Shown in pieces: positions 33,928 through 55,619 of a DNA stretch of 64,000 nt. Each line of letters starts with the position of its first letter. Within the stretch, counting starts at the first letter, position 1. Origin of the DNA: Rhodocyclaceae bacterium. Its GTDB lineage: Bacteria > Pseudomonadota > Gammaproteobacteria > Burkholderiales > Rhodocyclaceae. The position numbers and the translations under genes are program-made. The stretch is from NCBI GenBank assembly GCA_016702335.1, contig JADJEF010000020.1:1538032-1602031 (forward strand), given 5' to 3'. The notes beneath the pieces are model-generated. The model made no database searches and was not told the DNA's origin. It was given only the letters and a program-made list of their open reading frames with translations.

Positions 33928-34872
33928 TCAGCGAGTCTGCGAGGCGATCCAGATCGCCAGCCCCTGAGCATCCAGTTCCAGATCCATGTCCCAGATCTCC
34001 AGCAACTGCACATCTGACTGCTGACAGCCGTGGGCGCGCGCTTCGGCCAGCAGGTAGGTGCGCAGGTGCTGATGAATCGCCGCAATCGCCGTGTCACCAG
34101 CGCCGACTTGCCGCGCAATCGCCACCATGCCGTCCAGCCGGCGCAGCAGGTCAGTCGCTAGCAACGCGGGCGGTGCGCGCCGGCTGTAGTGGGTGAGATA
34201 CACCGCCTCGGGCTGGCAGGCGAGCATGCGTGCCACCGAATCGCGCATGGCCTCGGGATCAAACTGGCTGGGCGTGGTGGTGGGGAAGATGAAGGCGCGG
34301 CCATCGACATCGCATTCGCGATAACTCAGTCCAAAGGTATCGCCGGTGAATAGGCCACGCGCGGCGTGATCGTGAATGAAGACATGGTGCTTGGCATGGC
34401 CGGGGCAGTCATGAAAGCTCAGGGTGCGTGCGCCCAATGTCAGCATCATCCCATCGGTGGTTTCGAGCACGCGTTCGGCTGCAATGGGGATAAGCGCACC
34501 GTAGAGTGCCTTGGCGCGCTCGCTGCCGTATACCTCTTCGGTCGCGGCCCAGAGCTTGGCGGGCTCGATCATGTGCCGCGCCCCGCGCGGGTGCACCACC
34601 AGTTTGGCGTGCGGAAAGGCCTGCATCATGGCGCCAGCGCCGCCGGCATGATCGAGGTGAATGTGTGTGAGCAACACATAGTCAACGCAGTCCGGCGTGA
34701 GGCCCAGCTCGCTCAGCGCAGCTTGAGCGGCCGGCAGGCTGTAGTTGCTGCCGCAATCGACAAAGGCGGCGCGACCGTTGTCGATAATCAGGTGGATCGC
34801 CGCCAGTTGGTGGCGCACATAGGTGGCGTCGATGGCATGAATGCCGTTGCCGTAGTCGATGCGGGGGGTCAT
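33928..34872 (-). CDS. MBL-fold metallo-hydrolase
   Basis: LLTHIHLDHAGG motif. 314 aa. Contains a copy of the dispersed repeat near its 3' end (encoding VGAGDTAIA). Confidence 0.75.
   Translation of the reverse strand: MTPRIDYGNGIHAIDATYVRHQLAAIHLIIDNGRAAFVDCGSNYSLPAAQAALSELGLTPDCVDYVLLTHIHLDHAGGAGAMMQAFPHAKLVVHPRGARHMIEPAKLWAATEEVYGSERAKALYGALIPIAAERVLETTDGMMLTLGARTLSFHDCPGHAKHHVFIHDHAARGLFTGDTFGLSYRECDVDGRAFIFPTTTPSQFDPEAMRDSVARMLACQPEAVYLTHYSRRAPPALLATDLLRRLDGMVAIARQVGAGDTAIAAIHQHLRTYLLAEARAHGCQQSDVQLLEIWDMDLELDAQGLAIWIASQTR
34087..34113 (+). repeat. dispersed element copy 4
   Basis: CGCCGTgtcaCCAGCGCCGACTTGCCG. Lies inside the minus-strand MBL gene, where it encodes ...VGAGDTAIA... Confidence 0.85.
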
Positions 34873-35042
34873 TGCTTTCTCCGTCTTTCCAAGACCGGGA
34901 GTATCGCTCAGGCGCTCACTGCGGCGAGATTCAGGTGCCGCTGGGCGAGGGGCGAAGGTGCCCGTGAGGCCTTACCCCTCCGCCTCCAGAAAACTGATCT
35001 AGCGCAAGAACCCGGCAGCGTGGACTTGCTAGACTGCGCGCC

Positions 35043-35441
35043 ATGTTCTCCGGTTTCGATGTGCTGCTGATGCGCCTGCGCCGCCATGGCTGGGCCTTGC
35101 TCGCCCTGGCCTTGAGCCTGGTGCTGCTGCAAACCGCGACGCTCGCCCGTAGCGCGCCTCATGGGAGCGTCGGCGGCGAAAGCGGGCTCAGTGAAATCTG
35201 TACCGTACAAGGTGTCATCACCGTCAATGCCAACGGCGAACCGGTGCTGCCGGCCAGCAGCGACGCTGGCCACGATTGCTGCGTCAGTTGCATTCTGGCT
35301 GCCCCGGCACTCCCCGATACGGCCCGCATCGCCGTCCCGCCAGCGCCGACTTGCGGAACGCAAGCCGCCCACGTCGCCGCGCCTTACCCTGGGCGCGACC
35401 AGTACCGCGCGCCGCCGAGCCGCGCCCCACCCTCCGCCTGA
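35043..35441 (+). CDS. DUF2946-like small membrane-anchored Cys-motif protein (paralog 1)
   Basis: N-terminal TM. HDCCVSC motif. C-terminal ..IAVPPAPTCG...PP..A tail shared with paralogs at 36627 and 40901. Copper-locus context. Confidence 0.55.
   Translation: MFSGFDVLLMRLRRHGWALLALALSLVLLQTATLARSAPHGSVGGESGLSEICTVQGVITVNANGEPVLPASSDAGHDCCVSCILAAPALPDTARIAVPPAPTCGTQAAHVAAPYPGRDQYRAPPSRAPPSA
35330..35356 (+). repeat. dispersed element copy 5
   Basis: CGCCGTcccgCCAGCGCCGACTTGCGG. In-frame in DUF2946 paralog 1 (IAVPPAPTCG). Confidence 0.85.
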
Positions 35442-35510
35442 GTGTTTTCCGGTGGCCCTGTTCCTGCGAACAGCGGCCTTTGGTTTCTCACTTTTGTTCA
35501 GGAGGGATTC

Positions 35511-36083
35511 ATGTCCCCAGAGAGTTGCATTGGCTTCGCCCATGGCGAAGCAGTTTTGGTCGCTGGCATGCCCGGACGCTGCTGGCGCATTCATCAAGGC
35601 GCTGTCCGCCTCACCCGCTGGGTAGACGACAGCGAGCACTTTGCCGGCCTGGCCCGCACCGGTGACCTGATCGGGGTCGAGGCGCTCATGGGTAATGACA
35701 GCACGTTCAGTGCCTATGCCTTGAGCGAACTTATTCTTGAGCCCAAGGGTGCGCTGGACAGTGCCGCCCTGCTGGCCGCGCTCACCTCCAGCGAGCAACG
35801 AGCCGCCGAGGCGCTCGCCCTGTGTCGCGGCACGGCAGACGAACGCATCGCACGTCTGATGACCCTGCTGGCCAAGCCCACCGCCAGCGGCCACGCCCGC
35901 GTGCAAATGCCCAGCCTGCGCGAAATGGCCGAGATCACCAACCTGACGCAAGAGACCATCTCGCGCGTGGTCAGCCGCTTGCGGCGTCTTGGCCAGTTGG
36001 TGCGCAACAGCCGGGCGCAGGCCGAGTTCATTCCCTGCCGTGGGCTGGCCACCGGCAATCCGGGTCTGAGTCTGGCGGCCTGA
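35511..36083 (+). CDS. Crp/Fnr-family transcriptional regulator
   Basis: RBS aggaggga. cNMP-binding-like N-terminus. C-terminal HTH (SLREMAEITNLTQETISRVVSRLRRLG). Confidence 0.75.
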   Translation: MSPESCIGFAHGEAVLVAGMPGRCWRIHQGAVRLTRWVDDSEHFAGLARTGDLIGVEALMGNDSTFSAYALSELILEPKGALDSAALLAALTSSEQRAAEALALCRGTADERIARLMTLLAKPTASGHARVQMPSLREMAEITNLTQETISRVVSRLRRLGQLVRNSRAQAEFIPCRGLATGNPGLSLAA

Positions 36084-36133
36084 TCACAATTCCCTCCACT
36101 GCCCACTTCATTCACCTTAGCGAAAGAAATCCC

Positions 36134-36604
36134 ATGAGACTCAAACTTGCCGCACTCCTCACTGCTCTCCTCGCCACCGCGCTTGCCAGCCAGTTCGCCG
36201 TGGCCGAGGTCAAGGTCGCCGACGCCTGGGTGCGCGCCACCGTGCCCGCCCAAAAAGCCACCGGTGCCTTCATGACCCTGACGGCTGACAAGGCGACCCG
36301 TCTGATCGCGGCAAGTTCGCCTGCCGCCGAGGTGACCGAGGTGCATGAAATGGCCATGAGCGACGGCATCATGACCATGCGCCATTTGGAGAAAGGGCTG
36401 GAGCTGCCCGCCGGCAAGGCCGTCGAGCTCAAGCCCGGTGGCTATCACTTCATGCTCATGGGCCTGAAGGCACAGATGAAGGCAGGCAGCACCGTGCCGC
36501 TCACCCTCAGCTTGCAAGACGCCGATGGCAAGAGCCGGACCGTCGCGGTCGAGGCCGTGGTCAAGCCGCTCGCGGCCCCGGCGGCAGGCTCCAAGCACCA
36601 CTGA
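36134..36604 (+). CDS. periplasmic copper chaperone PCu(A)C
   Basis: Signal peptide. H(M)x10Mx21HxM-type motif (EVHEMAMSDGIMTMRHLE). About 156 aa. Confidence 0.8.
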   Translation: MRLKLAALLTALLATALASQFAVAEVKVADAWVRATVPAQKATGAFMTLTADKATRLIAASSPAAEVTEVHEMAMSDGIMTMRHLEKGLELPAGKAVELKPGGYHFMLMGLKAQMKAGSTVPLTLSLQDADGKSRTVAVEAVVKPLAAPAAGSKHH

Positions 36605-36626
36605 GCCACTGAGTAACGGCCGCGCC

Positions 36627-36995
36627 ATGCACAGTTGCCGTCTGCGCCACCCGGCTCCGGCATGGCTCATGCTCGTGCTGGGCCTGCTGGTCTGGTGCGG
36701 TCAGGCCATTGCCTTTCAGCGGCTGGCGCAGGCTGAACTGGTGGCGCTTGATCCGCTCGCGCGCATCGTCGCCGCTTCGCTCTGCACCAGTCATGGCGGT
36801 GAAGCCGGCCCTGTTGCCCAAACCCATGACTGCTGCCTCAGTTGCGTCGGCGTTGCCAGCGGTGGCATCCCCGGCAGCGCGCCAAGCGCCGTCTCACCAG
36901 CGCCGACTTGGGGACTGTTCGTTACCGGCATCCACGCACCACCGCCAACACCTCGCTATCTGCGCCGCCCGGCGCGCGAGCCACCCCTCGCCTGA
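36627..36995 (+). CDS. DUF2946-like protein (paralog 2)
   Basis: TM region. HDCCLSC motif. C-terminal AVSPAPTWG...PPPTPRYLRRPAREPP tail. Confidence 0.55.
   Translation: MHSCRLRHPAPAWLMLVLGLLVWCGQAIAFQRLAQAELVALDPLARIVAASLCTSHGGEAGPVAQTHDCCLSCVGVASGGIPGSAPSAVSPAPTWGLFVTGIHAPPPTPRYLRRPAREPPLA
36887..36913 (+). repeat. dispersed element copy 6
   Basis: CGCCGTctcaCCAGCGCCGACTTGGGG. In-frame in DUF2946 paralog 2 (AVSPAPTWG). Confidence 0.85.
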
Positions 36996-37067
36996 TCGAC
37001 ACCCACTGATTCCTCCACGTGCGCGCCGCGCACCGTGGCCGTATTCCCTGTCGATTGGAAGAATTTC

Positions 37068-39203
37068 ATGATGTCCACCCGCATTGCGCTCGCCGTCGCC
37101 ACGGCTTGCACCAGCCTTTCCGCGTTCGCCGTCCATGTGGACGCCCCCCTCACCATTACCGTCACCGCCACGCGTGAAGCCAAGGCCATCGCCGAAACCC
37201 CGGCCAGCCTCAGCGCCGTCGATGGCGAAGCCATCCGCGAGCAACGCCCCACGCACCCCAGCCAGATCCTCAATCAGCTGCCCGGCGTCTGGCTGAGCAC
37301 GCTCTCGGGTGAGGGTCACTTCACCTCGATCCGTCACCCGCTGACCACCGGCGCGGTGTATCTGTATCTCGAAGACGGAATCCCGACACGCTCGACCGGC
37401 TTCTTCAACCACAATGCCCTGTACGAAATCAACGTGCCGCAAGCGGGCGGCATGGAAGTTTCGAAAGGGCCGGGCAGCGCGCTCTACGGCTCGGATGCCA
37501 TCGGCGGCACCATCAACGTGCTCACCCGCGCGCCGGACAAAAGCAATGGCGGCGAGCTGACGCTGGAAGCCGGCAGCCACGGCTGGCAACGCGCCCTGGG
37601 CAGTGCCAGCGTGCGTTGGGGAGACGCGGGCCGGGACGGCCTGCGCGCCAGCGTCAACCTGACACGCACCGACGGCTGGCAGGACGACGCCGGCTACGAC
37701 CGGCAGGCCGGCACCCTGCGCTGGGACCGCGCGCTGGGCGATGGGGCGAATCTCACCACCGTGCTCTCGTATTCGCACGTCGACCAGCAGCATGTCGGCA
37801 GCCTCAACCCGGCGCAACTGCGCGCCACGCCCGAGCACAACAACATTCCGTTTTCCTATCGCACGGTCGATGCCCTGCGCCTGTCCAGCACCTTTGAAAA
37901 GCACAGTGGCGAATGGCTGCTGAGCCTCACGCCCTACTACCGTGACAACCGCATGGAGATCATCCCCAGCTGGTCCGTCACCTACGACCCGAGCCAGTAC
38001 GTGAGTGCCAATGAGTCCTTCGGCCTGCTCGCCAAAGTGCGCCGCGATTTCGTGCCCATGCGTGCACAGCTGATCGCCGGCATCGACCTCGACCACAGCC
38101 CCGGCATGCGCAAGGAAGATTCGATCCGCCTCGCCTCGACCACCAATGCCTTCGGTGCCAGCGACTACACCCTCAACACCGCCACCGCGCCGGTGCGTAT
38201 CTACGACTACGACGTCACCTACCGGGGCATCTCGCCCTATCTGCACGGCGAGATTTCGCCCCTCGAACCGCTGCGCATTACCGCCGGCCTGCGCTACGAC
38301 CGCATGAGCTACGACTACGACAATCACATGGCCGACGCCGCCACACGCGGCGTGCTCACACCCGCCGGATTTCCCGCCGGCGGCTTCTACGGCCACGCGC
38401 CCAGCCAGAAGGTCAGCTACTCGCACCTTGGGCCCAAGCTGGGCGCGACCTGGCGTTTCAGCAAACAGCTGTCGGCCTTTGTGAATTACGCCAATTCCTT
38501 CCGCACGCCCTCCGAGAGCCAGGTGTTCCGGGGCAGCCGTGAATCGAATGCGCTGCGCGCGCAAACCCAGGCGCTCTCGCTCATTGAGCTCAAGCCCGTG
38601 GTGGTGGACAACGTCGAGACCGGCGTGCGCTTCGCCAATGGCCACTGGAGCGGCAGCCTCTCGGTCTATGACATGCACAAGTCGGACGACATTGTCAGCT
38701 ATCAGGACGCGACCTTGCAGCGGCGCACAGTCAATGCCGGCTCGACGCGCCATCGCGGTACCGAGCTGGCGCTGGGCTTGCGTTTCAACGACGACTGGCG
38801 GGCCGATCTGGCCTGGAGCAGCGCCCGCCACACCTATGAAAAATGGCTGATCTCGGGCACCACCGATTACAGCGGCAAGACCATGGAAGCCGCACCGCGC
38901 TACATGGGCCACCTGGCGCTGGCGTGGACGCCCGCGCTACTCAATGGCGGGCATGTGCGGCTGACCTGGCATCACATCGGTAGCTACTGGCATGACCCGG
39001 CCAATACCCAGAAGTACGATGGCCACACCCTGCTCGGCCTGCAAGTGCGTTACCCGGCCAGTGAGCACTGGGAGCTCTATGCCAATGCTGAAAATCTGGC
39101 CAACAAACGCTATGCCGATACCGTCGGCGGCACCGATGCCGCGCCCACCTATGGGGCCGGCCAGCCGCGTACCGTCACGGCCGGCGTGCAGTACCGTTTC
39201 TGA
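37068..39203 (+). CDS. TonB-dependent outer-membrane receptor (copper-locus associated)
   Basis: Signal peptide. Plug domain (GSALYGSDAIGGTINV). C-terminal ...GVQYRF beta-barrel terminus with terminal aromatic residue. Confidence 0.85.
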   Translation: MMSTRIALAVATACTSLSAFAVHVDAPLTITVTATREAKAIAETPASLSAVDGEAIREQRPTHPSQILNQLPGVWLSTLSGEGHFTSIRHPLTTGAVYLYLEDGIPTRSTGFFNHNALYEINVPQAGGMEVSKGPGSALYGSDAIGGTINVLTRAPDKSNGGELTLEAGSHGWQRALGSASVRWGDAGRDGLRASVNLTRTDGWQDDAGYDRQAGTLRWDRALGDGANLTTVLSYSHVDQQHVGSLNPAQLRATPEHNNIPFSYRTVDALRLSSTFEKHSGEWLLSLTPYYRDNRMEIIPSWSVTYDPSQYVSANESFGLLAKVRRDFVPMRAQLIAGIDLDHSPGMRKEDSIRLASTTNAFGASDYTLNTATAPVRIYDYDVTYRGISPYLHGEISPLEPLRITAGLRYDRMSYDYDNHMADAATRGVLTPAGFPAGGFYGHAPSQKVSYSHLGPKLGATWRFSKQLSAFVNYANSFRTPSESQVFRGSRESNALRAQTQALSLIELKPVVVDNVETGVRFANGHWSGSLSVYDMHKSDDIVSYQDATLQRRTVNAGSTRHRGTELALGLRFNDDWRADLAWSSARHTYEKWLISGTTDYSGKTMEAAPRYMGHLALAWTPALLNGGHVRLTWHHIGSYWHDPANTQKYDGHTLLGLQVRYPASEHWELYANAENLANKRYADTVGGTDAAPTYGAGQPRTVTAGVQYRF

Positions 39204-39213
39204 GGAATCCATC

Positions 39214-40419
39214 ATGAGAATTCTGCTTTTCTGTCTGAGCCTTTTTCTGGCCACGGCCGAGGCCCACGACATGAGTGCCCACTGGAAAACCCTGCACCAG
39301 ACAAGGGGCGGGCTGGCCACAGCGCTCGCCAGCGACAGCACCGGCGCGCTCTGGCGCGTCGAAGCGCGGGCCGGGCACCTGTGGGTGAGCCGGTCCACCG
39401 ACACGGGCAAGACTTTCAGCGCCCCGGTGCGGGTCAATGCCGAGCCGGAAACAGTGATGGCCGAAGGCCAGAACCGGCCGCAGATCGCCGTACTGGAGTC
39501 GTCCGGGCAGGCCCCGGTCGTGGTGGTAGCGTGGGTACGGGCGCGGGAAAAAGTGTTTGCCTCGGAGGTTCGCTTTGCTCGTTCGGTCGATGGCGGCGTC
39601 AGCTTCGAACCGGCGCGCACGCTCAATGACGACGGCCAGACCGACATTGGTCACAGCTTTGTCGCCCTCGCCGCACAAGGCGCGCAGCTGACTCTGGCGT
39701 GGATCGACGCCCGCGCATCGCACGCTGCCCGCACCGCCGCCGGCGGCAAGCGCGACGCCTATGCCGGTAGCGCCATTTTTGTTGTCGAGTCGCAGGACGC
39801 CGGCGCGAGCTTTGCGCCCAACCGCAAACTGGCCGACCACAGCTGCGAGTGCTGCCAGCTCTCGCTCGCCAGCCCGGCGACGGGGGCGCCACTGCTGCTC
39901 TGGCGACACATCTTCGAGGGCAAATTCCGCGACTTTGCCCTGGCCGATGTCAGCACCGGCGTGATCACCCGCGCCAGCAGCGACGGCTGGGCGATCACCG
40001 CCTGCCCGCACCATGGCGGTGATCTGGCCATTGCCGCCGACGGCCGCCAGCACTGGGTATGGTTCACCGGGGCGGCCGGCGCCCCCGGCCTGCACTATCG
40101 CCATCAGAGCGGCAATCAACTGTCCCCCGCGCAAGCCGTCGGCAATCTCGACGCGCAGGCGAGCTTTCCGGTCGTCTGGGCTGGCGGTGCGCCGAATGAA
40201 GTGCATCTGGCCTGGCGCGAATTTAGCGACGGCGCCTACGCGCTGCGTACTCGGCGCTCGCAGGACGGCGGTGTGAGCTGGTCAGCCGAGCGCACCGTCG
40301 CCAGCAGCCGCAACGCCGCCGACAACCCGCGCTTTGTGCGCGCCGCCCCGCGCCCGCTGCTGGCCTGGAACACGCAGGAGGAAGGCACGCGCGTGTTTGA
40401 TCTGGGGGTGCAGCCATGA
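39214..40419 (+). CDS. secreted BNR/Asp-box repeat protein (sialidase-like beta-propeller)
   Basis: RBS gaggaa. Signal peptide MRILLFCLSLFLATAEA. Asp-box STDTGKTFS. Confidence 0.7.
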   Translation: MRILLFCLSLFLATAEAHDMSAHWKTLHQTRGGLATALASDSTGALWRVEARAGHLWVSRSTDTGKTFSAPVRVNAEPETVMAEGQNRPQIAVLESSGQAPVVVVAWVRAREKVFASEVRFARSVDGGVSFEPARTLNDDGQTDIGHSFVALAAQGAQLTLAWIDARASHAARTAAGGKRDAYAGSAIFVVESQDAGASFAPNRKLADHSCECCQLSLASPATGAPLLLWRHIFEGKFRDFALADVSTGVITRASSDGWAITACPHHGGDLAIAADGRQHWVWFTGAAGAPGLHYRHQSGNQLSPAQAVGNLDAQASFPVVWAGGAPNEVHLAWREFSDGAYALRTRRSQDGGVSWSAERTVASSRNAADNPRFVRAAPRPLLAWNTQEEGTRVFDLGVQP

Positions 40420-40901
40420 GTCTGCTGCGCAAACTCCTCGGCCTGCTGGTGCTGGTCGCGGCCACGACCGCGTTCGCCAGTGCGCCGGTCAAGCCCTTTA
40501 CCACCGAGAGTTATGCCGCCATTCTCGCCGCGCACCGGGGCCAGCCGCTGGTCGTCGCCTTCTGGTCGCTGGACTGCGCCCATTGCCCGGGCTCGCTGGC
40601 CACACTGGCCAGGTTCGCCCGTGCCCATCCAAAGGTGTCGGTGGTACTGGTCGCCACCGACACCGGCGCAGACCCGGCGGCACTGGCCAGCCATGTGCGG
40701 CAGGCCGCTCTGGCGCAGGCCGAACAGTGGGTCTTCGCCGACCCGCTGCCCGAGCGCCTGCGCCTGAGCATCGACAGCCGCTGGTGGGGCGAACTGCCGC
40801 GCAGCTATCTGATCGCCGCCGACGGCACGCGCAGCGCCCATTCCGGCGTGTTAGACGCCGGGCAGCTGGCCCAGTGGCTGAGCGCGCAGCGGCAGCCCTG
40901 A
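40416..40901 (+). CDS. TlpA/ResA-like periplasmic thiol-disulfide oxidoreductase
   Basis: Signal peptide. Thioredoxin CxxC motif (WSLDCAHCP). Confidence 0.75.
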   Translation: MSLLRKLLGLLVLVAATTAFASAPVKPFTTESYAAILAAHRGQPLVVAFWSLDCAHCPGSLATLARFARAHPKVSVVLVATDTGADPAALASHVRQAALAQAEQWVFADPLPERLRLSIDSRWWGELPRSYLIAADGTRSAHSGVLDAGQLAQWLSAQRQP

Positions 40902-41272
40902 TGCAGCAAGCCCGGCGCGCCCGGTGCAACGCCAGCGCCAGCCGCTGGCTGCTGGCGCTCGGACTGCTGGTGATACTGATGCAGGCCACGGCGCGGTGGC
41001 CGCAGGCACGCACCGTGTCGCTGCAGATGACGCAGGTATGCACCGCGCACGGCATGGTGTCGGTAGTGCTGCCGGGTCCACCGGCACAGAGCGCGCCGGG
41101 CGCGCACGAGTGCTGTCGCGACTGTGTGCTGAACACCCCCGCGCCCCCGGCGCTGCACGCAATCGCCGTCCCGCCAGCGCCGACTTGGGGGCTTTTATCC
41201 AGCGCGGTCAGTACATCGATCACGCCGCCCCGCTACCTGCGCCACCCGGCGCGCGCGCCGCCGCACGCCTGA
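40901..41272 (+). CDS. DUF2946-like protein (paralog 3)
   Basis: Start overlaps the upstream stop (TGATG). HECCRDC motif. C-terminal IAVPPAPTWG...PPRYLRHPARAPP tail. Confidence 0.55.
   Translation: MQQARRARCNASASRWLLALGLLVILMQATARWPQARTVSLQMTQVCTAHGMVSVVLPGPPAQSAPGAHECCRDCVLNTPAPPALHAIAVPPAPTWGLLSSAVSTSITPPRYLRHPARAPPHA
41164..41190 (+). repeat. dispersed element copy 7
   Basis: CGCCGTcccgCCAGCGCCGACTTGGGG. In-frame in DUF2946 paralog 3 (IAVPPAPTWG). Confidence 0.85.
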
Positions 41273-41394
41273 GCCTTTTCCGGCCTTTTGGCTGTCCTGT
41301 TGTCTGCTCTGTGCGCGCACCGCGCGGTGCGTATGCATACGCGTATCCGCCTGCCGGCGGCGCTCCCCTGATCTTTTTCGGAAAGTCTTCTGTC

Positions 41395-43593
41395 ATGAAA
41401 CGCAAACTGCTCTGCACCGCCCTGGCGGCGCTGCCCCTGATCACTCTGGCCGACGAGGCCAGTCTCGCCACCATTGTCATTACCGGCCGGTCCGCTGAGC
41501 CGGCGACCGCCGGCAGCATCGGCCCCCGCCAGCTGCGCGCCCAGCAGGCCGCGACCTCGGATACCGCCAGTCTGCTCAAGGATGTACCCGGCGTCAGCCT
41601 CTATGGGGCCGGCGGCGCGTCCAGCCTGCCGGTGATCCACGGCCTTGCCGACGACCGCCTGCGCATCAAGGTTGACGGCATGGATCTGGTGGCCTCCTGC
41701 CCCAACCACATGAACCCGGCGCTCTCTTACCTCGACCCGAGCAATGTCGCCAAGCTCAAGGTCTATGCCGGCATCGCGCCGGTGAGTGTGGGCGGCGACA
41801 GCATCGGCGGGACGATCCTTGCCGAAACGCCGGCGCCCGAATTTGCCACGGCCGCTGCACCGAGCTTGTTCAAGGGCGAGATTGGCGGCTTTTATCGCAG
41901 CAATGGCGGCGCGACCGGGGGCAATCTCTCGGCCACGGCGGCCACTGAAACGTTCAGCCTGAGCTATTCCGGGTCCATCGCCAAGTCGGACAACTACGAA
42001 GCGGGCGGAAAGTTCAAGACCCGCACCGACACCGGCCGCACCGGCCACAGCCTCGATCTTGATGAGGTCGGCTCCACGGCCTACGAGACGCGCAATCAGA
42101 CGCTGGGCATTGCGTTCAAGAATGGCCAGCATTTGCTGGAAGCCAAGCTTGGGCGGCAGGACGTGCCCGAGCAGCTGTTCCCCAATCAGCGCATGGACAT
42201 GCTGAAGAACACGCAGGATCGCCTGAATCTGCGCTATGCCGGTGAGTTCGCCTGGGGGGCGCTGGAGGCGCGGGTGTATCAGGAAAAAGTCGATCACTTC
42301 ATGGATTTCGGCGCCGACAAGCAGTTCCAGTACGGCACCGCGCCGGGCATGCCCATGAACACCGTAAGCAAAACCACCGGCCTCAGTATTAATGCCAACC
42401 TCGACCTGCGCGCCGGCAACCAGCTGCGCCTGGGCACGGAATTCCAGCACTACGCGCTGAACGACTGGTGGCCGCCCTCGGGCACGGGCATGATGTCGCC
42501 CAATGCCTTCATCAACATCAATGACGGCCAGCGCAACCGCAGTGCTGTCTTTGGCGAGTGGGAACAGCGCGCCTCGGCGCAGTGGCTGAGCGTGCTCGGG
42601 CTGCGCTACGAGCACGTCAGCACCGATGCCAGCAATGTCGCCGGCTATGCCGCCACCAATATGATGGGCTCGAACCAGCTGCGCGACAGCACGGCCTTCA
42701 ACGCCCGGGATCGCAGCAAAACCGACCACAACTGGGACCTGACGGCCCTGGCTCGCTATACGGCCAGCGCCACCTACGACATCGAATTCGGCGTAGCACG
42801 CAAGACCCGCTCGCCCAATCTCTATGAGCGTTATACCTGGTCGACCTGGGGCATGGCGGCGATCATGAACAACTTCAATGGCGACGGCAACGGCTATCTG
42901 GGCGATGTTGAGCTCAAACCCGAGGTAGCTCACACCGCCAGCGCTACCTTCGACTGGCACGCCGCCGATCGCAACTGGGGGTTCAAGGCCACGCCGTACT
43001 ACACGCGCGTTGCCGACTATATCGATGCCGTGCAATGGGACGGCACCAGCAACGTCGCCGACACCACGCCCGCTGTCGGGGCGTTCTCGGTGCTGAAGTA
43101 TCGCAATCAGTCGGCGCGCCTTTACGGGCTCGACCTTTCCGGCCATCTGCCACTGGCCACGACCGCGCTGGGCGAATTCGGCCTGAAAGGCGTGTTGAAC
43201 TACGTCAATGGCAAGAACCGCGACACCGGCGATGACCTGTACAACATCATGCCACTCAACACCCGACTGACCCTGACCCAAACGCTGGGCAACTGGTCCA
43301 ACAGTGCCGAGCTGGTCACGGTGAAGTCCAAAAATCACGTCTCGGATGTGCGCAACGAAATCGCCACCGGCGGCTACAGCCTGATCAACCTGCGCGCGAG
43401 CTACGCATGGGCCAAGGCGCGCATTGATGTCGGCGTGGAAAACCTGTTTGACAAGCGCTACGACCTGCCGCTGGGCGGCGCCTATGTCGGCCAGGGCAGC
43501 ACCATGTCCACCAACACCGCCAACCTGCCCTGGGGTATTGCGGTTCCCGGTGCCGGACGGTCGCTCTACGCGGGCTTCAACCTGAAGTTCTGA
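41395..43593 (+). CDS. TonB-dependent outer-membrane receptor (OprC/NosA-like candidate copper receptor)
   Basis: Signal peptide MKRKLLCTALAALPLITLA. Plug domain. Ends ...GFNLKF. Confidence 0.85.
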   Translation: MKRKLLCTALAALPLITLADEASLATIVITGRSAEPATAGSIGPRQLRAQQAATSDTASLLKDVPGVSLYGAGGASSLPVIHGLADDRLRIKVDGMDLVASCPNHMNPALSYLDPSNVAKLKVYAGIAPVSVGGDSIGGTILAETPAPEFATAAAPSLFKGEIGGFYRSNGGATGGNLSATAATETFSLSYSGSIAKSDNYEAGGKFKTRTDTGRTGHSLDLDEVGSTAYETRNQTLGIAFKNGQHLLEAKLGRQDVPEQLFPNQRMDMLKNTQDRLNLRYAGEFAWGALEARVYQEKVDHFMDFGADKQFQYGTAPGMPMNTVSKTTGLSINANLDLRAGNQLRLGTEFQHYALNDWWPPSGTGMMSPNAFININDGQRNRSAVFGEWEQRASAQWLSVLGLRYEHVSTDASNVAGYAATNMMGSNQLRDSTAFNARDRSKTDHNWDLTALARYTASATYDIEFGVARKTRSPNLYERYTWSTWGMAAIMNNFNGDGNGYLGDVELKPEVAHTASATFDWHAADRNWGFKATPYYTRVADYIDAVQWDGTSNVADTTPAVGAFSVLKYRNQSARLYGLDLSGHLPLATTALGEFGLKGVLNYVNGKNRDTGDDLYNIMPLNTRLTLTQTLGNWSNSAELVTVKSKNHVSDVRNEIATGGYSLINLRASYAWAKARIDVGVENLFDKRYDLPLGGAYVGQGSTMSTNTANLPWGIAVPGAGRSLYAGFNLKF

Positions 43594-43636: not shown

Positions 43637-43663
43637 CGCCGTTTCACCAGCGCCGACTTGCGG
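43637..43663 (+). repeat. dispersed element copy 8
   Basis: CGCCGTttcaCCAGCGCCGACTTGCGG. Intergenic, between the TonB-dependent receptor stop and the GGDEF-EAL gene start. Confidence 0.85.
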
Positions 43664-46189: not shown

Positions 46190-46216
46190 CGCCGTGTCAC
46201 CAGCGCCGACTTGGGG
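46190..46216 (+). repeat. dispersed element copy 9
   Basis: CGCCGTgtcaCCAGCGCCGACTTGGGG. Intergenic, between the convergent csp-like and fbpA genes. Confidence 0.85.
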
Positions 46217-47595: not shown

Positions 47596-47605
47596 AGGAG
47601 CCACC

Positions 47606-47821: not shown

Positions 47822-47834
47822 ACGGAGATTTGCC

Positions 47835-48976: not shown

Positions 48977-49347
48977 TGCCGCCTCGTGGTGGCCGCTGGC
49001 TCGCGCACGGCAGCTTTGTCGCCGCACTCTGGATCGGGCTTGGCCTCGCCGTGCCCGAGCCGGTGCAGGCGCAGGCCAAAGCGCTGCCGGCATTTACCGC
49101 CACCGTGACCGATGGCGTGTTCGCCCCGGCCCGCCTCGTCGTGCCGGCCGGCGAGCGGGTCAAGATCATCCTCAAGAACGAAGGCCCCGGCCCGCTCGAA
49201 TTCGAGAACGACGACATGCGCATCGAAAAGATTGTCGCTGCCGGAGCGGGTTCGTTTGTGGTGCTGCCACCGCTCAAGCCGGGGACGTATGAGTTCATTG
49301 ATGAATTCAACATCGCGACCGGCGTGCTGGTGATCGAGGCGCAGTAA
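48976..49347 (+). CDS. periplasmic cupredoxin-like protein (FtrB-like)
   Basis: Start overlaps the upstream stop (ATGA). Signal peptide. Cupredoxin-like beta-strand pattern. Confidence 0.6.
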   Translation: MPPRGGRWLAHGSFVAALWIGLGLAVPEPVQAQAKALPAFTATVTDGVFAPARLVVPAGERVKIILKNEGPGPLEFENDDMRIEKIVAAGAGSFVVLPPLKPGTYEFIDEFNIATGVLVIEAQ

Positions 49348-49352
49348 TCGTT

Positions 49353-50735
49353 GTGCACACCATCGTATTCCATCGCCAACCGCCGTTACGCCAGCGCCGA
49401 CTTGCGGTACTTGCGCGCATTGGCGACTGGCTGGCCACGCACCGCCGCGTCATCCTCGGCGTGCAGTGGGTGGTGGTCGCGTGCTATCTGCTGCTCGTCG
49501 CGCTGCCCGCCTTCCTGCCCCTGCCGGCGGGCGACGCACACCTGTTTGGCTCGGCACTGTGGCATGAACGTGTGGTGCTCTTGGCGCAATACCTGTTCTG
49601 GGGCGTGTGGTGGCCCTTCGTCATTCTGTCCATCATGCTCATGGGCCGCGTCTGGTGCGGCGTGCTCTGCCCCGAGGGCGCGCTCTCGGAATGGGCCAGC
49701 CGGCACGGGCGCGGCGGCGCGATTCCCAAATGGCTGCGCTGGGGCGGCTGGCCCTTTGTTGCCTTCGTACTGACCACGGTTTATGGGCAGCTGGTCAGCG
49801 TGTATGACTACGCGCAGGCGGCACTGCTGATCCTAGGCGGCTCGACCGTTGCCGCGATGATCGTGGGCTATTTCTACGGCCAGGGCAAGCGCGTCTGGTG
49901 CCGCTACCTGTGCCCGGTCACCGGCGTGTTTGCGTTGCTGGCGCGCTTAGCGCCCATCCACTTTCGCGTCGACCGCGCCGCGTGGGCCGCCTACCCGCAG
50001 CGCACGCCAGCGGTCGATTGCGCACCGCTGCTGCCCGTGAGCCACCTGAATGGCATGGCGCAGTGCCACGCCTGCGGCCGCTGCAGCGGGCATCGTGATG
50101 CGATGACGCTGGCGGCGCGTTCGCCCAATGCCGAAATCCTTGCCGGCGATGCGCCAACGCACTGGGACATGGCGCTGCTCTGCGTCGGCATTTTCGGCGT
50201 GGCGCTGGGCGCGTTTACCTGGAGCCTGGCGCCGACGTTTGTGGCGCTGAAACAGACAACGGCCGCATGGCTGATCGAGCGCGACATCCTCTGGCCGCTG
50301 GCCGAGAGCCCGGCCTGGTGGCTGCTCACGGCCTACCCGCAGGCCAACGACGTATTCACCCTGCTCGACGGCGCAGCCATCCTCGGCTGGATCGCAGCGA
50401 CCGCACTGGTGCTCGGCGGCGGCATCTGGCTGACGCTGCACGGCGCGGCGCGGCTGGCCCAGGTCGATGCCCGTCGCCTGGCCCTGGGTCTCGTGCCACT
50501 GGCCGGCGCCAGCCTGTTTCTCGGCCTCTCAATGATGACGGTGAATCACCTGCGCGCCGAGGGCGTGCTGCTGCCCTGGCTTGAGGTGGTGCGAGTGGGC
50601 CTGCTGGGCGGTACGGCGCTGTGGTCGGCCGCGCTGCTCTGGCGACTGGCGGCGGATCGCCTCGCCGGCTTTCTAACCGCCCTGCTGCCGGTGGTCGCGG
50701 TGTGCAGCGTCTGGACGCTAACGCTGCTCAAATGA
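49353..50735 (+). CDS. membrane-bound polyferredoxin (FtrD/NapH-like)
   Basis: TM helices plus CxxC..CP pairs (WCGVLCPEG, WCRYLCPVTG, CHACGRC). The dispersed repeat lies in the N-terminal cytoplasmic region. Confidence 0.7.
   Translation: MHTIVFHRQPPLRQRRLAVLARIGDWLATHRRVILGVQWVVVACYLLLVALPAFLPLPAGDAHLFGSALWHERVVLLAQYLFWGVWWPFVILSIMLMGRVWCGVLCPEGALSEWASRHGRGGAIPKWLRWGGWPFVAFVLTTVYGQLVSVYDYAQAALLILGGSTVAAMIVGYFYGQGKRVWCRYLCPVTGVFALLARLAPIHFRVDRAAWAAYPQRTPAVDCAPLLPVSHLNGMAQCHACGRCSGHRDAMTLAARSPNAEILAGDAPTHWDMALLCVGIFGVALGAFTWSLAPTFVALKQTTAAWLIERDILWPLAESPAWWLLTAYPQANDVFTLLDGAAILGWIAATALVLGGGIWLTLHGAARLAQVDARRLALGLVPLAGASLFLGLSMMTVNHLRAEGVLLPWLEVVRVGLLGGTALWSAALLWRLAADRLAGFLTALLPVVAVCSVWTLTLLK
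49381..49407 (+). repeat. dispersed element copy 10
   Basis: CGCCGTtacgCCAGCGCCGACTTGCGG. In the 5' end of the polyferredoxin gene, encoding PPLRQRRLAVL in a different frame. Confidence 0.85.
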
Positions 50736-51430
50736 ACGTGCGCACAACCACCTTGATCGTGTCCTCGCCGACACAGATTCTGAGCTCTGCCTGTCACTGC
50801 GCACTGGTCGCCGGCGTGCATCTGGCGGTGCTGGCATGGCTGTGGCAGGCGGTGCCGACCGCTGTGCGCGCGCCGCTGGTGTTGCAGATGCGCATGATCG
50901 CAGCAGGGGTAGCACCAACGGTCACAGCGCCACTATCGGCCGTGTCCCCACTCCAGTCGCGCCGGCAAAACGCCGTCCTGCCAGCGCCGACTTCCCGACC
51001 CATCGTTGCACCCGTCGCGCCACCCATAGCATCACCCACGGCCACATCGCCCGTCGCCGTTGCCGATGCGCCCGCGCCAACCATCGCCGCCACTGAGAGC
51101 TTCGCCACGCCCACCGAGAGCACCCCCGCGAGCGCCCCGGTCGACCCCACGCCGCCACGCTTTGACGTCGGCACGCTCGACAACCCCACGCCCGCCTACC
51201 CCGCGCTCTCGCGCCGGCTGGGCGAGCAGGGGCAGGTGCTGCTGCAGGTCGAGGTCGGCACCGACGGCCGCGCGCACAAAGTGGCGGTGAAACGCAGCAG
51301 CGGCTACCCGCGTCTGGACCACGCGGCGCTGGAAACCGTGCGCCGCTGGACCTTTATCCCCGCCCGCCTGAGCCGCCTCGCCATCGCGGCCAGCGTGCTG
51401 GTGCCAATTCGTTTCTCGCTGAAAGAGTGA
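50732..51430 (+). CDS. tonB: TonB energy-transducer
   Basis: ATG overlaps the upstream stop (ATGA). N-terminal TM. Pro/Ala-rich spacer. C-terminal TonB domain (GQVLLQVEVGTDGRAHKVAVKRSSGYPRLDHAALETVRRWTFIPA). The GTG start at 50621 is rejected. Confidence 0.75.
   Translation: MNVRTTTLIVSSPTQILSSACHCALVAGVHLAVLAWLWQAVPTAVRAPLVLQMRMIAAGVAPTVTAPLSAVSPLQSRRQNAVLPAPTSRPIVAPVAPPIASPTATSPVAVADAPAPTIAATESFATPTESTPASAPVDPTPPRFDVGTLDNPTPAYPALSRRLGEQGQVLLQVEVGTDGRAHKVAVKRSSGYPRLDHAALETVRRWTFIPARLSRLAIAASVLVPIRFSLKE
50971..50997 (+). repeat. dispersed element copy 11 (CTTCCCGACCC sub-variant)
   Basis: CGCCGTcctgCCAGCGCCGACTTCCCGACC. In the TonB proline-rich spacer (AVLPAPTSRP). Confidence 0.85.
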
Positions 51431-51431
51431 T

Positions 51432-52154: not shown

Positions 52155-52166
52155 GCGGCCAACACC

Positions 52167-52586
52167 ATGAGCTTCGCCACCCTCGACCCCGACGATACCG
52201 CCAGCGATCTGGCCGAGATCAACATGGTGCCGCTGATCGACGTGATGCTGGTGCTGCTGGTGATCTTCATCGTCGCCGCACCGCTGCTCCAGCATGCCGT
52301 GCCGCTCGATCTGCCACGCGCCGCCAGCCAGCCGCAGAGCGCGCCGGCCGAGCACATCAAGCTCGCCATCGACCGCGCCGGGCACATCTACTGGAATGGC
52401 ACGCTCACCCCGCTGGCGCAGATCGAGCAACGCCTGACCGACACCGGTACGCGCGCCCCGCACACCGAGTTGCACCTGTCAGCGGACAGCGCCACCGCCT
52501 ACGAACGCGTCGCCCAGCTGCTCGCCGCCAGCAGTCGCGCCGGGCTGACGCGGGTGGGGTTTGTCACCGATCCGAGGGCGAAATGA
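52167..52586 (+). CDS. exbD: ExbD
   Basis: EINMVPLIDVMLVLLVIFIV motif. 139 aa. Confidence 0.85.
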   Translation: MSFATLDPDDTASDLAEINMVPLIDVMLVLLVIFIVAAPLLQHAVPLDLPRAASQPQSAPAEHIKLAIDRAGHIYWNGTLTPLAQIEQRLTDTGTRAPHTELHLSADSATAYERVAQLLAASSRAGLTRVGFVTDPRAK

Positions 52587-52594
52587 ACCGGTAC

Positions 52595-52834
52595 TTACTG
52601 CCGTTCGTCACCGAGGTCGGGCGTCACATCGGGGGCGCGATCCAGCACAGCGAGAAAATCACTGCGCCGGCCTTGCGCCGCCTCGGCGCGCAGGTAGTCC
52701 AGCGTCATTACGCTGGCCATTTTTTCGGCGGCGGCACTGGCAATGAACTGATTCACCGACACGCCGTCGCGCGCCGCCAGTTCCTTGATGCGCAGATGCA
52801 CCGAATCGGGCAGTCGTATGGTCAGGGCAGTCAT
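52595..52834 (-). CDS. small DNA-binding (RHH/Arc-like) putative antitoxin, paralog of 13958..14191
   Basis: 79 aa. Paralogy noted above. 4-bp overlap with the upstream PIN gene. Confidence 0.6.
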   Translation of the reverse strand: MTALTIRLPDSVHLRIKELAARDGVSVNQFIASAAAEKMASVMTLDYLRAEAAQGRRSDFLAVLDRAPDVTPDLGDERQ

Positions 52835-53256
52835 GGCAGGGTCTCCAGATGACGAAGGAAATTACCGGGCGTCATGGCGACCACACCCAGCTCGGAGGCA
52901 CGCGCAAAGTCCTTGACGTTGTGCGTGATGATGAATTCGCAACTCGCCGCCACGGCGCACTCCAGCACCATGTCGTCGTCCGGGTCGCGCAGGAAGGGAC
53001 GCCACAGGTAGTAGATATCCTGCAAGTGCGCAATCGAGGCGAGATAGCGCAGAAAGCCCTGAATCTGCTCAACGCCCACGCCGGGCGGTCGATGCTCAGG
53101 GCGCGTCAGCACCGCCTGCCACTCCATGTACAGGGCGACGGAAAGTGCCGGCGTGAATTGCGTCGACGGCAGGCCGCGCAGCAAGCCCTGACTGGCGCCC
53201 TGACGGGAACGCAGGGCGGCAACGAGTACCGAGGTATCAATAACGATGCGCATCAT
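52831..53256 (-). CDS. PIN-domain protein (putative toxin), paralog of 13519..13953
   Basis: MMRIVIDTSVLVAALRS...EFIITHNVKDF. Aligns with the first PIN gene along its whole length. Confidence 0.75.
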   Translation of the reverse strand: MMRIVIDTSVLVAALRSRQGASQGLLRGLPSTQFTPALSVALYMEWQAVLTRPEHRPPGVGVEQIQGFLRYLASIAHLQDIYYLWRPFLRDPDDDMVLECAVAASCEFIITHNVKDFARASELGVVAMTPGNFLRHLETLP

Positions 53257-53399
53257 GGTTACACCAATATACCCATCGAAGCACTATTACGCAACTCATG
53301 AATACCTGATTGCGTCGAATATCAACCCCTGCCAGCCAGCCCCCGCAGTCCTTTCTGCCGCCAGCCAGCCTTGAACACTTGCTCCCGGAAAGGAATGCC

Positions 53400-55619
53400 A
53401 TGTCCCGTTTTACCCGTTTCACCTCACGTCGCCAGCCGCTGGCGGCTGCCGTCGCCACGGCAATCGCCGTCCTGTCAGCGCCGACTTGGGCGCAGCAGTT
53501 GCTCCAGGAAACCGTCGTCTCCGGCTCGCGCATCGAGCAGGAAATCGACAGCGTGCCGGCCACGCTCACGGTCATCACTGACGAGACCATTGCCCGCGAA
53601 AACCCCACTGATCTCGACGACCTGCTCAAGCATGAGGCGGGCGTTTCGGTGCGCAGCCAGCCCAATCGTTCGTCGGGTGTGTTCCGCGCCGTCGGCCGCG
53701 CCGGCAACGAGGGCGTGAACATTCGCGGCCTCGAAGGTGACCAGGTGCGTCTGCAGGTCGATGGCGTCGCCCTGCCCATGACCTACAGCAGCGGCCCCTA
53801 CGCCGCCGGGCGCGGTGATGTGATCGACCCCGAGGGCTACAAACAGGTCGAGATCCTGCGCGGGGCGGCCTCGACCCAGTTCGGTTCCGACGGCCTCGCC
53901 GGGGCCGTGAGCTTTCGCACCAAGGACCCGGCCGACCTGCTGACGCTGGGCAAGGACGTGCAGGGCAACATAAAGTTGGCCTATGCCTCGGCCAATCGCG
54001 AATGGCAGTTCGCGCCCTCGGCCGCATTCAAGACCGACAGCGTGCAGGGCATGGTGCTGGCCAGCTACCGGCGCGGTCATGAGACCGAGACCATGGGCAC
54101 GAACAACGCGCACAGCGTCAATCGCACCAGCGCCAACCCCTCGGAGCGCGACGCCGATTACCTGCTGGCCAAGCTGGTCTGGTCGCCCTCGGCGGCGCAT
54201 CAGTTCAAGCTCACCGCCGAGTCGCTCAAGCGCGACAACGCCACCGATGTGTACACGTTCTTTGGCGACCCCTTCGCCGCCGCCACGCTCACCGACGTCG
54301 AGGTCGAAGAAAAGGTCACGCGCGAACTGGTCAAGCTCGACTACCGCTACGTGCCGCAGAACCTGTGGTTCGATCTGCTCGAACTCTCGCTCTATACGCA
54401 GGCATCGGAAAACCGCCAGCTCGGGCTGGAGCGCCGTTCGGCCAACCCCCTGCTGCGCACCCGCGATACCCGCTATGCCGAAGACACGCTGGGCGGCAGC
54501 CTGCTGCTGGAGAGCAATCTGCGCTTGGGCAGTACCGAGCACCGCGTGGTCGGCGGGCTGGATCTCGTGCGCAACGACGTGACCTCGCTCAAGGATGGCT
54601 ACAACAGCTCGGGCGCCGCCTTCGTGGCCAACAAGAGCTTTCCCGATACCGGGTACCGCACGCTCGGCGCTTTCCTTCAGGATGAAATCCGTCTCGGCCC
54701 GGTCAGCTTCACGCCGGGGGTGCGCTACGACGAATTCAAGCTCTCGCCCAAGGCCGACGCGCTGTATCGGGTGAACAACACCGTCGCCCCCGCCGCGCTC
54801 AAAGGCGATGAACTCTCGCCGCGTCTGGGCGCGATCTGGTCCGTGTCGCCCCTGCTTCAGCCCTACGCGCAGTACGCGCACGGCTTTCGCGCGACCAAAC
54901 CCAGCCAGGTCAATGGCGGTGTCACCAACCTGACCACGGTCACCGGTTCCGGCCCCTACACCTCGCAAGGCAACCCCGACCTGCTGCCCGAAACCAGCGA
55001 CACCGTCGAGCTCGGCCTGCGCGGGCGCGACGCTACCCGGCGTTACAGCGTGTCGGTGTTCAAGGGCAAGTACAAGGATTTCATTGCCTCCAATCAGCTG
55101 GTGGCGAGCAATGTGGACCTCGGGCTGGGGCCGCTGGTCGATGTCTTCCAGACCGTCAACCTCTCCCGCGTCACCCTGCAAGGTTTTGAAGCGCGCGGCG
55201 AATGGGCATTCGCCAAGGGCTGGCGCACCAGCCTCGCCTACGCCCACGTCAAGGGCGACTCGGATGACGGCAACACCAAAGCCCCGCTGGCCACCGTCGA
55301 CCCCGACAAGCTGGTGCTCGGACTGAGCTACGAGCAGGCCGGGCACTGGGGCGCATCCGCCACCGCGACGGCGGTCGAGCGCAAGCAGCGCAACCCGGAC
55401 CCGACCACCTACACCGCGCCGGGCTACCGACTGCTCGACCTCTCCGCGTGGTACGCGTTCAGCAAAGCCACGCGCCTCGCCACGACGCTCAACAATGTCT
55501 TCGACCGCAAATACGTCGAATGGGCCGACGTGCGCGACCTGGCGGCGACGAGCACCGTGCTCGACGCCTATACGCAGCCGGGGCGCAACTTCACCGTCAG
55601 CCTGACGCACAGCTTCTGA
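53400..55619 (+). CDS. TonB-dependent outer-membrane receptor (heme/metalloporphyrin-type candidate)
   Basis: RBS aaaggaa. Signal peptide incorporating the dispersed repeat (AIAVLSAPTWA/QQ). Plug domain. Ends ...SLTHSF. Confidence 0.85.
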   Translation: MSRFTRFTSRRQPLAAAVATAIAVLSAPTWAQQLLQETVVSGSRIEQEIDSVPATLTVITDETIARENPTDLDDLLKHEAGVSVRSQPNRSSGVFRAVGRAGNEGVNIRGLEGDQVRLQVDGVALPMTYSSGPYAAGRGDVIDPEGYKQVEILRGAASTQFGSDGLAGAVSFRTKDPADLLTLGKDVQGNIKLAYASANREWQFAPSAAFKTDSVQGMVLASYRRGHETETMGTNNAHSVNRTSANPSERDADYLLAKLVWSPSAAHQFKLTAESLKRDNATDVYTFFGDPFAAATLTDVEVEEKVTRELVKLDYRYVPQNLWFDLLELSLYTQASENRQLGLERRSANPLLRTRDTRYAEDTLGGSLLLESNLRLGSTEHRVVGGLDLVRNDVTSLKDGYNSSGAAFVANKSFPDTGYRTLGAFLQDEIRLGPVSFTPGVRYDEFKLSPKADALYRVNNTVAPAALKGDELSPRLGAIWSVSPLLQPYAQYAHGFRATKPSQVNGGVTNLTTVTGSGPYTSQGNPDLLPETSDTVELGLRGRDATRRYSVSVFKGKYKDFIASNQLVASNVDLGLGPLVDVFQTVNLSRVTLQGFEARGEWAFAKGWRTSLAYAHVKGDSDDGNTKAPLATVDPDKLVLGLSYEQAGHWGASATATAVERKQRNPDPTTYTAPGYRLLDLSAWYAFSKATRLATTLNNVFDRKYVEWADVRDLAATSTVLDAYTQPGRNFTVSLTHSF
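53465..53490 (+). repeat. dispersed element copy 12 (TCAGCGCC variant)
   Basis: CGCCGTcctgTCAGCGCCGACTTGGGC. Forms the signal-peptide h/c-region of the TonB-dependent receptor (AIAVLSAPTWA). Confidence 0.8.

Follow-up and report, generated by a model that had tools for sequence, protein, structure and literature searches.

The stretch of DNA analysed here, the window, comprises 64,000 nucleotides of a Rhodocyclaceae bacterium (contig JADJEF010000020.1, positions 1,538,032 to 1,602,031). It contains 13 copies of a short, non-palindromic repeated word, every one of them on the plus strand, with the form CGCCGT-N4-CCAGCGCCGACTT-G(C/G)GG and a length of about 27 bases. A search for CCAGCGCCGACTT allowing one mismatch returned 14 matches in the 64 kb, compared with 0.20 expected and a maximum of two in dinucleotide shuffles, and in 13 of these 14 matches CGCCGT stood exactly 4 nt upstream. 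The four-nucleotide spacer between the two rigid blocks is the variable part of the word. Copies occur about once per 5 kb in this genome, and together with its two 10-kb contig flanks the window holds 17 of them in roughly 80 kb. The consensus over these copies, c.AAtCGCCGT.tCaCCAGCGCCGACTTGcGGa, brings the form in the window genome to ..AAtCGCCGT-N4-CCAGCGCCGACTTG(C/G)GG, with about 30 conserved bases.

The context of each copy was derived from the gene calls of the record combined with Pfam and frame analysis. Six of the 13 copies encode (A)V-x-(P/S)-A-P-T. Three of the six lie at the same relative position in paralogous genes of the DUF2946 type: copy 5 (35330..35356, read A-V-P-P-A-P-T-C-G) in the gene at 35043-35441, copy 6 (36887..36913, A-V-S-P-A-P-T-W-G) in that at 36627-36995, and copy 7 (41164..41190, A-V-P-P-A-P-T-W-G) in that at 40901-41272. 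The first and last of these proteins pass the Pfam threshold for DUF2946, whereas the middle one, which the original prediction had counted as an equal member, falls below it and is 46% identical to the 40901 paralog. Copy 11 (50971..50997, A-V-L-P-A-P-T-S-R, with the 3' end CTTCCCG) encodes part of the proline-rich linker of TonB (50732-51430), copy 12 (53465..53491, A-V-L-S-A-P-T-W-A before QQ) part of the signal peptide of a TonB-dependent receptor (53400-55619), and copy 13 (59511..59537, A-V-P-P-A-P-T-S-R) part of a C-terminal Pro/Ala linker in a CobN-like protein (55621-59694). Copy 12 has a single mismatch, TCAG in place of CCAG.

Two further copies are read antisense. Copy 3 (23195..23221) gives D-R-K-S-A-L-A-I-R-R in the variable helical subdomain of an ABC ATPase encoded on the minus strand (22408-23622), and copy 4 (34087..34113) gives R-Q-V-G-A-G-D-T-A-I in a hypervariable loop of an MBL-fold hydrolase, likewise on the minus strand (33928-34872). 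The other two sense frames are used once each, within the first 18 codons of called genes. Copy 10 (49381..49407) forms codons 10-18 of a called Fer4_5 membrane protein (49353-50735), read P-P-L-R-Q-R-R-L-A, and copy 1 (7296..7322, CGCCGTGTTACCAGCGCCGACTTGCGG) forms codons 8-16 of a called urea-transporter/M23 gene in the frame ..RRVTSADLR... Both copies may really lie upstream of the true gene starts; for copy 1, the called start is at window position 7274 and the copy may instead sit just ahead of the actual one. The remaining three copies are intergenic and lie some 30-45 nt past stop codons: copy 2 (15129..15155) about 30 nt beyond the stop of a minus-strand gene (15186-15899), copy 8 (43637..43663) 44 nt beyond the stop of a TonB-dependent receptor gene (43593) and ahead of the called start of a GGDEF/EAL gene (43711), and copy 9 (46190..46216) between the stops of the convergent Csp gene (46152) and SBP gene (46264).

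The peptides quoted in the original prediction were all read correctly, namely IAVPPAPTCG (35043), AVSPAPTWG (36627), IAVPPAPTWG (40901), AIAVLSAPTWA|QQ (53400), AVLPAPTSRP (TonB), AVPPAPTSRP (CobN-like protein) and, on the minus strand, RKSALAIRRIEEM (ABC ATPase) and QVGAGDTAIA (MBL hydrolase), as was the shared position in the three paralogs. Its statement that the element is read in more than one way holds as well, except that the QRRL and SADL copies raise the number of frames from the three claimed to five of the six. The range it had given, 34087-53490, contains the other quoted copies but leaves out those in the ABC ATPase gene (23195) and the CobN-like gene (59511).

Codon usage separates the word from the peptides that it encodes. 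In the genes of the window CCA makes up 8.4% of proline codons and ACT 6.9% of threonine codons, and the chance of spelling one PAPT as CCA-GCG-CCG-ACT is about 8e-4. ACT is found in every PAPT-frame copy, and CCA in all but copy 12, where the mismatch yields TCA (Ser). Among the three paralogs, DNA identity is 24-27 of 28 positions (86-96%) inside the word and 47-52% outside it, while the proteins are 35-46% identical; in contrast, the truly conserved H(D/E)CCxxC motif of the same paralogs shows ordinary synonymous variation. One might still suppose that PAPTWG is a conserved DUF2946 motif that the paralogs inherited and that the other copies are coincidental, as the shared relative position in the paralogs and a loose AV..P.aP pattern in the wider family would suggest. 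Such a protein-driven origin is contradicted by the fixed rare codons, by the difference in identity within and beyond the word, and by the presence of 13 copies against 0.2 expected, intergenic and antisense ones included.

Outside the window, an exact-pattern scan located the word on both strands of more than 115 genome stretches, nearly all from Rhodocyclaceae, including Sulfuritalea, Rugosibacter, Sulfurisoma, Propionivibrio, Azonexus and Methyloversatilis as well as metagenome-assembled genomes. It was also present in more than 120 metagenome stretches and in over 120 viral or proviral contigs of IMG/VR (L248-L367). Across the family the general form is tCGCCGT-N2-CG/CA-CCAGCGCCGAC-TT, followed by a lineage-specific 3' ending. 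After CTT, 138 of 154 copies from other genomes, whose consensus is tCGCCGT-NN-CG-CCAGCGCCGAC-TTT(T/C), continue with T, whereas 15 of 17 copies from the window genome continue with G. A third ending, GACTC(C/T)T, occurs in a metagenomic relative (..CCAGCGCCGACTC(C/T)T, at positions 6536, 10291 and 16445 of locus L369). A metagenome scan for the G variant returned mostly T-variant genomes with a chance G and did not enlarge the sample for the window species.

The DUF2946 proteins follow these variants. A plain homologue search with the 40901 protein gave only two matches, and an exhaustive profile search with the three paralogs, followed by alignment, showed that close DUF2946 relatives carry AV(S/P/A)PAPT-F at the site. 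The underlying DNA is CTCGCCGTATCACCAGCGCCGACTTTTCAC in Rugosibacter aromaticivorans and CTCGCCGTCCCGCCAGCGCCGACTTTTCCC in Rhodocyclaceae bacterium GS19 (locus L368); both are T-variant words. The GS19 locus is syntenic with window 35043-39203, and its orthologue of the copy 5 gene, identified by this synteny, has the T variant and hence A-V-P-P-A-P-T-F-P. The homologue from the metagenomic relative with the third ending reads ..APAPT-P, from a copy that ends in ..GACTCC. Thus, the 3' ending that the word has in a given lineage dictates the residue after PAPT, whether Trp or Cys as in the window, Phe or Pro.

AVxPAPT is confined to close homologues, of which the three with DNA fetched (P0010, P0012 and P0020) come from word-carrying genomes; more distant DUF2946 members show unrelated residues or the loose AV..P.aP pattern. 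No copy was present within 20 kb of a distant DUF2946 homologue (L370), even when four mismatches were allowed, and none in the syntenic second DUF2946 gene of GS19, unlike in the corresponding window paralog, 36627. Conservation of the segment throughout the family (PF11162) independently of the DNA word was therefore not found, and with it the ancient APTWG feature that the original prediction had named as grounds for giving up a maintained DNA element. Together with the codons, identities and copy numbers given above, these two genes without the word leave the protein-driven explanation with a negligible probability. The absence of the word from the distant gene and its 20-kb neighbourhood also leads us to reject an origin in DUF2946 followed by spread, which had been offered as one alternative; the word stands at hundreds of unrelated loci, in different frames and at intergenic sites, across many genera.

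The surroundings of the DUF2946 genes are themselves conserved. The order DUF2946, Crp-like regulator, LpqE-like (PCuAC-type) protein, DUF2946 and TonB-dependent receptor emerged when window 35043-43593 was compared with L368:10001-14105 and L246:10001-12117. This neighbourhood adjoins gmk-rpoZ-spoT in the relatives, and in the window it continues with a BNR-like gene, a gene for a protein of 161 amino acids, the third DUF2946 gene and a second receptor. It probably represents a metal uptake module, perhaps for copper.

Orthologues of the two genes with antisense copies allowed the DNA and the protein to be compared directly. In 120 orthologues of the MBL hydrolase (63-72% identity) the site falls in a hypervariable loop that usually reads AKQAGGDVLA, so that most of them fill it differently. 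The word-encoded peptide (Q/E)VGA.. is restricted to the three nearest orthologue clusters, in full in one and decayed in two. In the DNA of two orthologues (L371 and L372) both conserved blocks are kept antisense, and changes are confined to the N4 spacer and the flanks: the codons are CAA GTC GGC GCT GGT GAC ACG GCG in the window, GAA GTC GGC GCT GGT GGG ACG GCG in L371 and GAA GTC GGC GCT GAC AAG ACG GCG in L372. These substitutions track the conserved and variable positions of the word and not the needs of the protein. The ABC ATPase orthologue in L372 (L372:14323-15501), 74% identical to that of the window, has the word at the same site and reads REKSALAGRR where the window reads DRKSALAIRR; KSALA is preceded by E (GAA AAG) in the former and by R (CGC AAG) in the latter. 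Here, too, both blocks are kept antisense, with changes in the spacer and the flanks only. Directly after its word-encoded KSALAGRR, the L372 protein has a 27-residue insertion (TGLHEALPHAARRLLGNAESSKTVAS..). When the host genes were compared by tblastn with about 240 loci selected for the motif, no orthologues were recovered, only paralogous ABC ATPases.

Taken with the rare codons, the paralog identities and the 3' variants, these orthologues bear out the proposal that a DNA word is kept wherever the protein tolerates it. The word is, with high confidence, maintained on the DNA across lineages and superimposed on coding sequence, and the peptide segments are its by-products.

MBL orthologues without the word have a near-equal length at the site (30 versus 31 residues), with AKQAGGDVLA replacing RQVGAGDTAIA, and hence copies arise by substitution and not by insertion. 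This bears on the idea that the copies are footprints or termini of a miniature mobile element that inserts some 30 bp into genes. Some copies do resemble each other beyond the word, copies 1 and 2 over 54 nt at 87% identity (7271-7324 and 15104-15157) and copies 11 and 13 over 87 nt at 71% (50926-51012 and 59466-59552), the latter pair both encoding ..Q(N/T)AV.PAPTSRP in Pro-rich linkers; integron-like cassettes with several copies each, described below, would also suit such an element. Yet there are neither inverted or direct terminal repeats nor a hairpin, and the copies stand in frame with native-looking sequence. Together with the unchanged length of the MBL loop, this makes a mobile element very improbable.

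When the 13 window copies with their flanks were folded as single strands, no common hairpin was found (z-scores from -2.05 to +1.67, mean about 0), and a scan of the whole window produced no match to any Rfam family. The lack of a shared hairpin led us to reject readings as an RNA element, as a repetitive extragenic palindromic (REP) sequence or as a miniature inverted-repeat transposable element (MITE); of the marks of REP and MITE sequences, we found neither a hairpin or terminal inverted repeats nor insertion with a change of length. REP sequences and the bacterial interspersed mosaic elements (BIME) that they form, MITE-like repeats and Correia-type repeats are palindromic or bounded by inverted repeats and almost exclusively extragenic. 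The word shares with them its short length, its dispersal in hundreds of copies and its frequent position beside gene ends, but it is unstructured, and about half of its copies are intragenic and in frame. Sigma-54 and extracytoplasmic function (ECF) promoters, Type I restriction sites, dif and attC were dropped by eye, as spacing and sequence did not fit and copies are intragenic on either strand.

The behaviour of the word across the family was followed through the extra copies in the collected loci, a count that excludes the copy through which each locus had been fetched. These comprise 22 exact, 52 one-off and 29 two-off copies. Host loci have one per 6.5-7.7 kb and viral contigs about one per 23 kb; the roughly threefold lower figure for the latter comes from IMG/VR contigs that may include host flanks of prophages. 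For a census of reading frames, genes in the 115 genome loci were called crudely from GC content at third codon positions (GC3), with calls covering 71% of the DNA. The PAPT frame accounts for 40 copies, SADL for 21 and QRRL for six in the sense direction, and VGAG for 38, KSAL for 11 and SRRW for two in antisense, a ratio of 67:51; two copies lie at gene edges and 98, an overestimate, outside called genes, so that roughly half of the copies are intragenic. Use of the frames is strongly non-uniform (chi-square about 67, 5 degrees of freedom), those that encode small residues being favoured. Intergenic copies are found about twice as often near gene 3' ends as near 5' ends (98 versus 52 flank assignments).

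At L081:1361-1411 two perfect copies are inverted with 5 nt between the 23-nt matches. With the flanking bases they form a 27-bp stem and a 2-nt loop directly after a stop codon, followed by a run of T, and the arrangement looks like a bidirectional terminator of the kind that paired DUS, the DNA uptake sequences of Neisseria, provide. A different arrangement occurs at L047:1-6122 (Sulfuritalea sp. bin.273, JALHPU010000019.1), which resembles the cassette array of an integron. Its cassettes, of about 450-600 nt, are set apart by some ten attC-like repeats whose cores are GCCCAAC and GTTGGGC (GCCCAAC...GGACGCTGCGCGATGAAGCCGCGCAGCGCCGGTTA...ACGTTGGGC). The word occurs nine times in these 6 kb, always on the same strand, and several cassettes devoid of open reading frames carry one to three copies each. 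The cassettes could be hitch-hiking on the word, or the copies could have a different role there.

The anatomy of the word, two CGCCG(T/A) blocks 14 bp apart, is bipartite, and its flanks in the window genome are quasi-palindromic (GCAA-TCG...CGA-TTGC). Both properties would be expected of a binding site for an abundant DNA-binding protein, such as a nucleoid-associated protein or global regulator, with each site kept by its own purifying selection, and so would the intergenic copies near gene ends; an RNA role might be imagined along the same lines. However, the genes that contain the word are unrelated, its strand and its position within them vary freely, and no common regulatory logic is apparent; the many decaying one-off and two-off copies suit a balance of drive and decay better than function site by site. 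For an RNA, neither structure nor an Rfam match was seen. We regard this explanation as improbable.

Fifteen consecutive copies (window 7296-70784) lie on the plus strand, four of them in or beside minus-strand genes, whereas the two further to the left, outside the window, are on the minus strand (L242:5252 and 7381, corresponding to window -3737 and -1608). In other genomes neighbouring copies share a strand in 99 cases and lie on opposite strands in 65, that is, about 60% are co-oriented. Orientation was also associated with GC skew (194 versus 133), but GC3 skew owed -0.14 to the coding strand and +0.01 to replication. We therefore dropped GC skew as a proxy for the replication strand; as a coding-strand effect, its link to orientation says nothing about replication.

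The same-strand run leads us to retain a rival explanation, in which the word would act inside the cell as a polar signal for a DNA transaction. It would be read on one strand and follow the direction of replication or repair, as might a Chi-type recombination hotspot, a translocase-guiding sequence or a chromosome-organisation signal. Chi (GCTGGTGG) and the polar octamers of the FtsK-orienting (KOPS) type in E. coli are 8 nt long, strongly oriented with replication and without dialect-bearing flanks. The word resembles them in its frequency of about one per 5 kb, similar to the density of Chi in E. coli, in its strand run in the window and in a GCTGG(T/C)G core, its complement containing GCTGGTG or GCTGGCG; copy 13 contains GCTGGTGG, the E. 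coli Chi octamer. Adjacent copies elsewhere, too, are somewhat more often on the same strand. At 23-30 nt, however, the word is three to four times as long as these octamers and well outside the 5-8 nt of known polar signals, it is only weakly co-oriented in other genomes, where some 40% of neighbouring copies face opposite ways, and the inverted pair in L081 would have no meaning for such a signal. With the apparent link to GC skew reflecting the coding strand, we consider a polar signal an unlikely explanation, albeit one to be kept in mind.

The closest parallels are found among the sequences that mark self-DNA for uptake. The DUS of Neisseriaceae are 12-mers, AT-GCCGTCTGAA and its dialects, which are bound by the minor pilin ComP. 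Like them, the word is betaproteobacterial, family-wide and dispersed on both strands over coding and intergenic DNA, varies between lineages in the manner of dialects, has many degenerate copies and occasionally forms terminator-like inverted pairs after genes. It differs in having 23-30 conserved bases instead of 12, in occurring about once per 5-8 kb instead of about once per kb, and in its long same-strand run in the window genome; the two sequences are unrelated beyond a chance GCCGT.

The uptake signal sequences (USS) of Pasteurellaceae have a 9-bp core, AAGTGCGGT or ACAAGCGGT, and flanking AT tracts (Findlay and Redfield 2009, PMC2817400; van Passel 2008, PMC2346458), and USS and DUS copies sit at poorly conserved residues (Findlay and Redfield, PMC2817400). 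In USS as in the word, intragenic copies are translated in several frames, some of them strongly preferred; they lie where residues are poorly conserved and make particular peptides more frequent. Both also have two subtypes in different genera and a bias of orientation within genes. Clade and sequence are different, and USS combine a short core with weaker flanks whereas the word has two rigid blocks with a 4-nt spacer; USS are also backed by functional evidence. The traits of the DUS/USS class are nonetheless recognisable in it: great excess over chance with dispersal, as in the 64-kb window; lineage-specific variants, with homologous DUF2946 and orthologous ABC ATPase sites carrying the local one; and placement on both strands, within and between genes, in biased frames and at weakly conserved residues such as the MBL loop and the ABC ATPase subdomain.

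Since orthologous sites in different genera carry the variant of their own genome, we infer a trans-acting recognition system whose specificity has drifted. The excess, the use of both strands, the degenerate tail of copies, the frame bias, the weakly conserved sites, the enrichment at gene ends, the inverted pairs, the dialects and the lower density in phage-like DNA, a combination described for the USS and DUS as well, together lead us to rank an uptake-type drive first. We propose, with a probability of roughly 40%, that the word is an uptake-sequence-type tag of self-DNA. A sequence-specific process acting in trans would keep it, and preferential uptake of self-DNA during natural transformation would supply the molecular drive, by analogy with the DUS of Neisseriaceae and the USS of Pasteurellaceae. 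As recognition drifted between lineages, all copies, orthologous ones included, would have followed. Copies themselves arise by point substitution and persist where the sequence tolerates them, past stop codons and in linkers, signal peptides, variable loops and N-termini, and whichever frame a copy falls in is translated, as PAPT(W/C/F), KSALA, VGAG, SADL or QRRL.

Several observations weigh against this proposal. With 19-25 fixed positions the word exceeds both the 12 bp of DUS and the 9-bp core of USS in length and information, and it is about five times sparser than either. A run of 15 copies on one strand is not known as a trait of DUS or USS, and the cassettes without open reading frames in the integron-like array may hint at a different role. 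Membership of the DUS/USS class would further call for biased uptake by competent cells and for a dedicated receptor of the ComP-like minor pilin kind with type IV pilus/Com machinery. No pilin or com genes were noticed among the annotated genes of the window, although no search was aimed at them. The literature searched contained no report of uptake sequences or competence in Rhodocyclales, Comamonadaceae or related genera, or of the word itself, for which one unrelated mouse paper came up and which apparently has not been described for Rhodocyclaceae.

Two other features of the window deserve mention. A 120-nt tandem duplication (78% identity) at 31401-31640, inside a minus-strand gene for a protein of 740 amino acids (30890-33112), gives two copies of a AAKVKIADADATAK(F/Y)GTAEADVLRLKLEAQAQGNQQLGM segment. 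At 52583-53256, between exbD and the TonB-dependent receptor gene, a PIN-domain gene and a HicB/RHH-like gene on the minus strand form a toxin-antitoxin-like pair.

Whatever its function, the word provides a clean natural case of DNA-level pressure dictating amino acids, as in the residue after PAPT in DUF2946 (W, C, F or P) and the one before KSALA in the ABC ATPase (R or E). For annotators and curators of protein families, the apparent AVxPAPTF motif of DUF2946 relatives is likely a nucleotide artefact. To our knowledge, sequence-specific DNA uptake has been established in two bacterial families only. We tentatively suggest that the word may represent a third family of DNA uptake sequences, which would have evolved on its own and surpass all known ones in length and information content. 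Its genus-level dialects would have altered orthologous sites together with the amino acids encoded there. Alternatively, going by the same-strand run, the word may belong to a new class of long polar genomic words. If it is an uptake sequence, it would offer an independent test of the molecular-drive model for the co-evolution of uptake specificity and genomes. Gene flow in activated-sludge and groundwater communities could then be followed with the word as a candidate self tag, and the genetics of organisms that are hard to transform might gain a handle. It would also imply widespread, so far unrecognised natural transformation with a preference for self-DNA in bacteria that dominate wastewater and groundwater environments.

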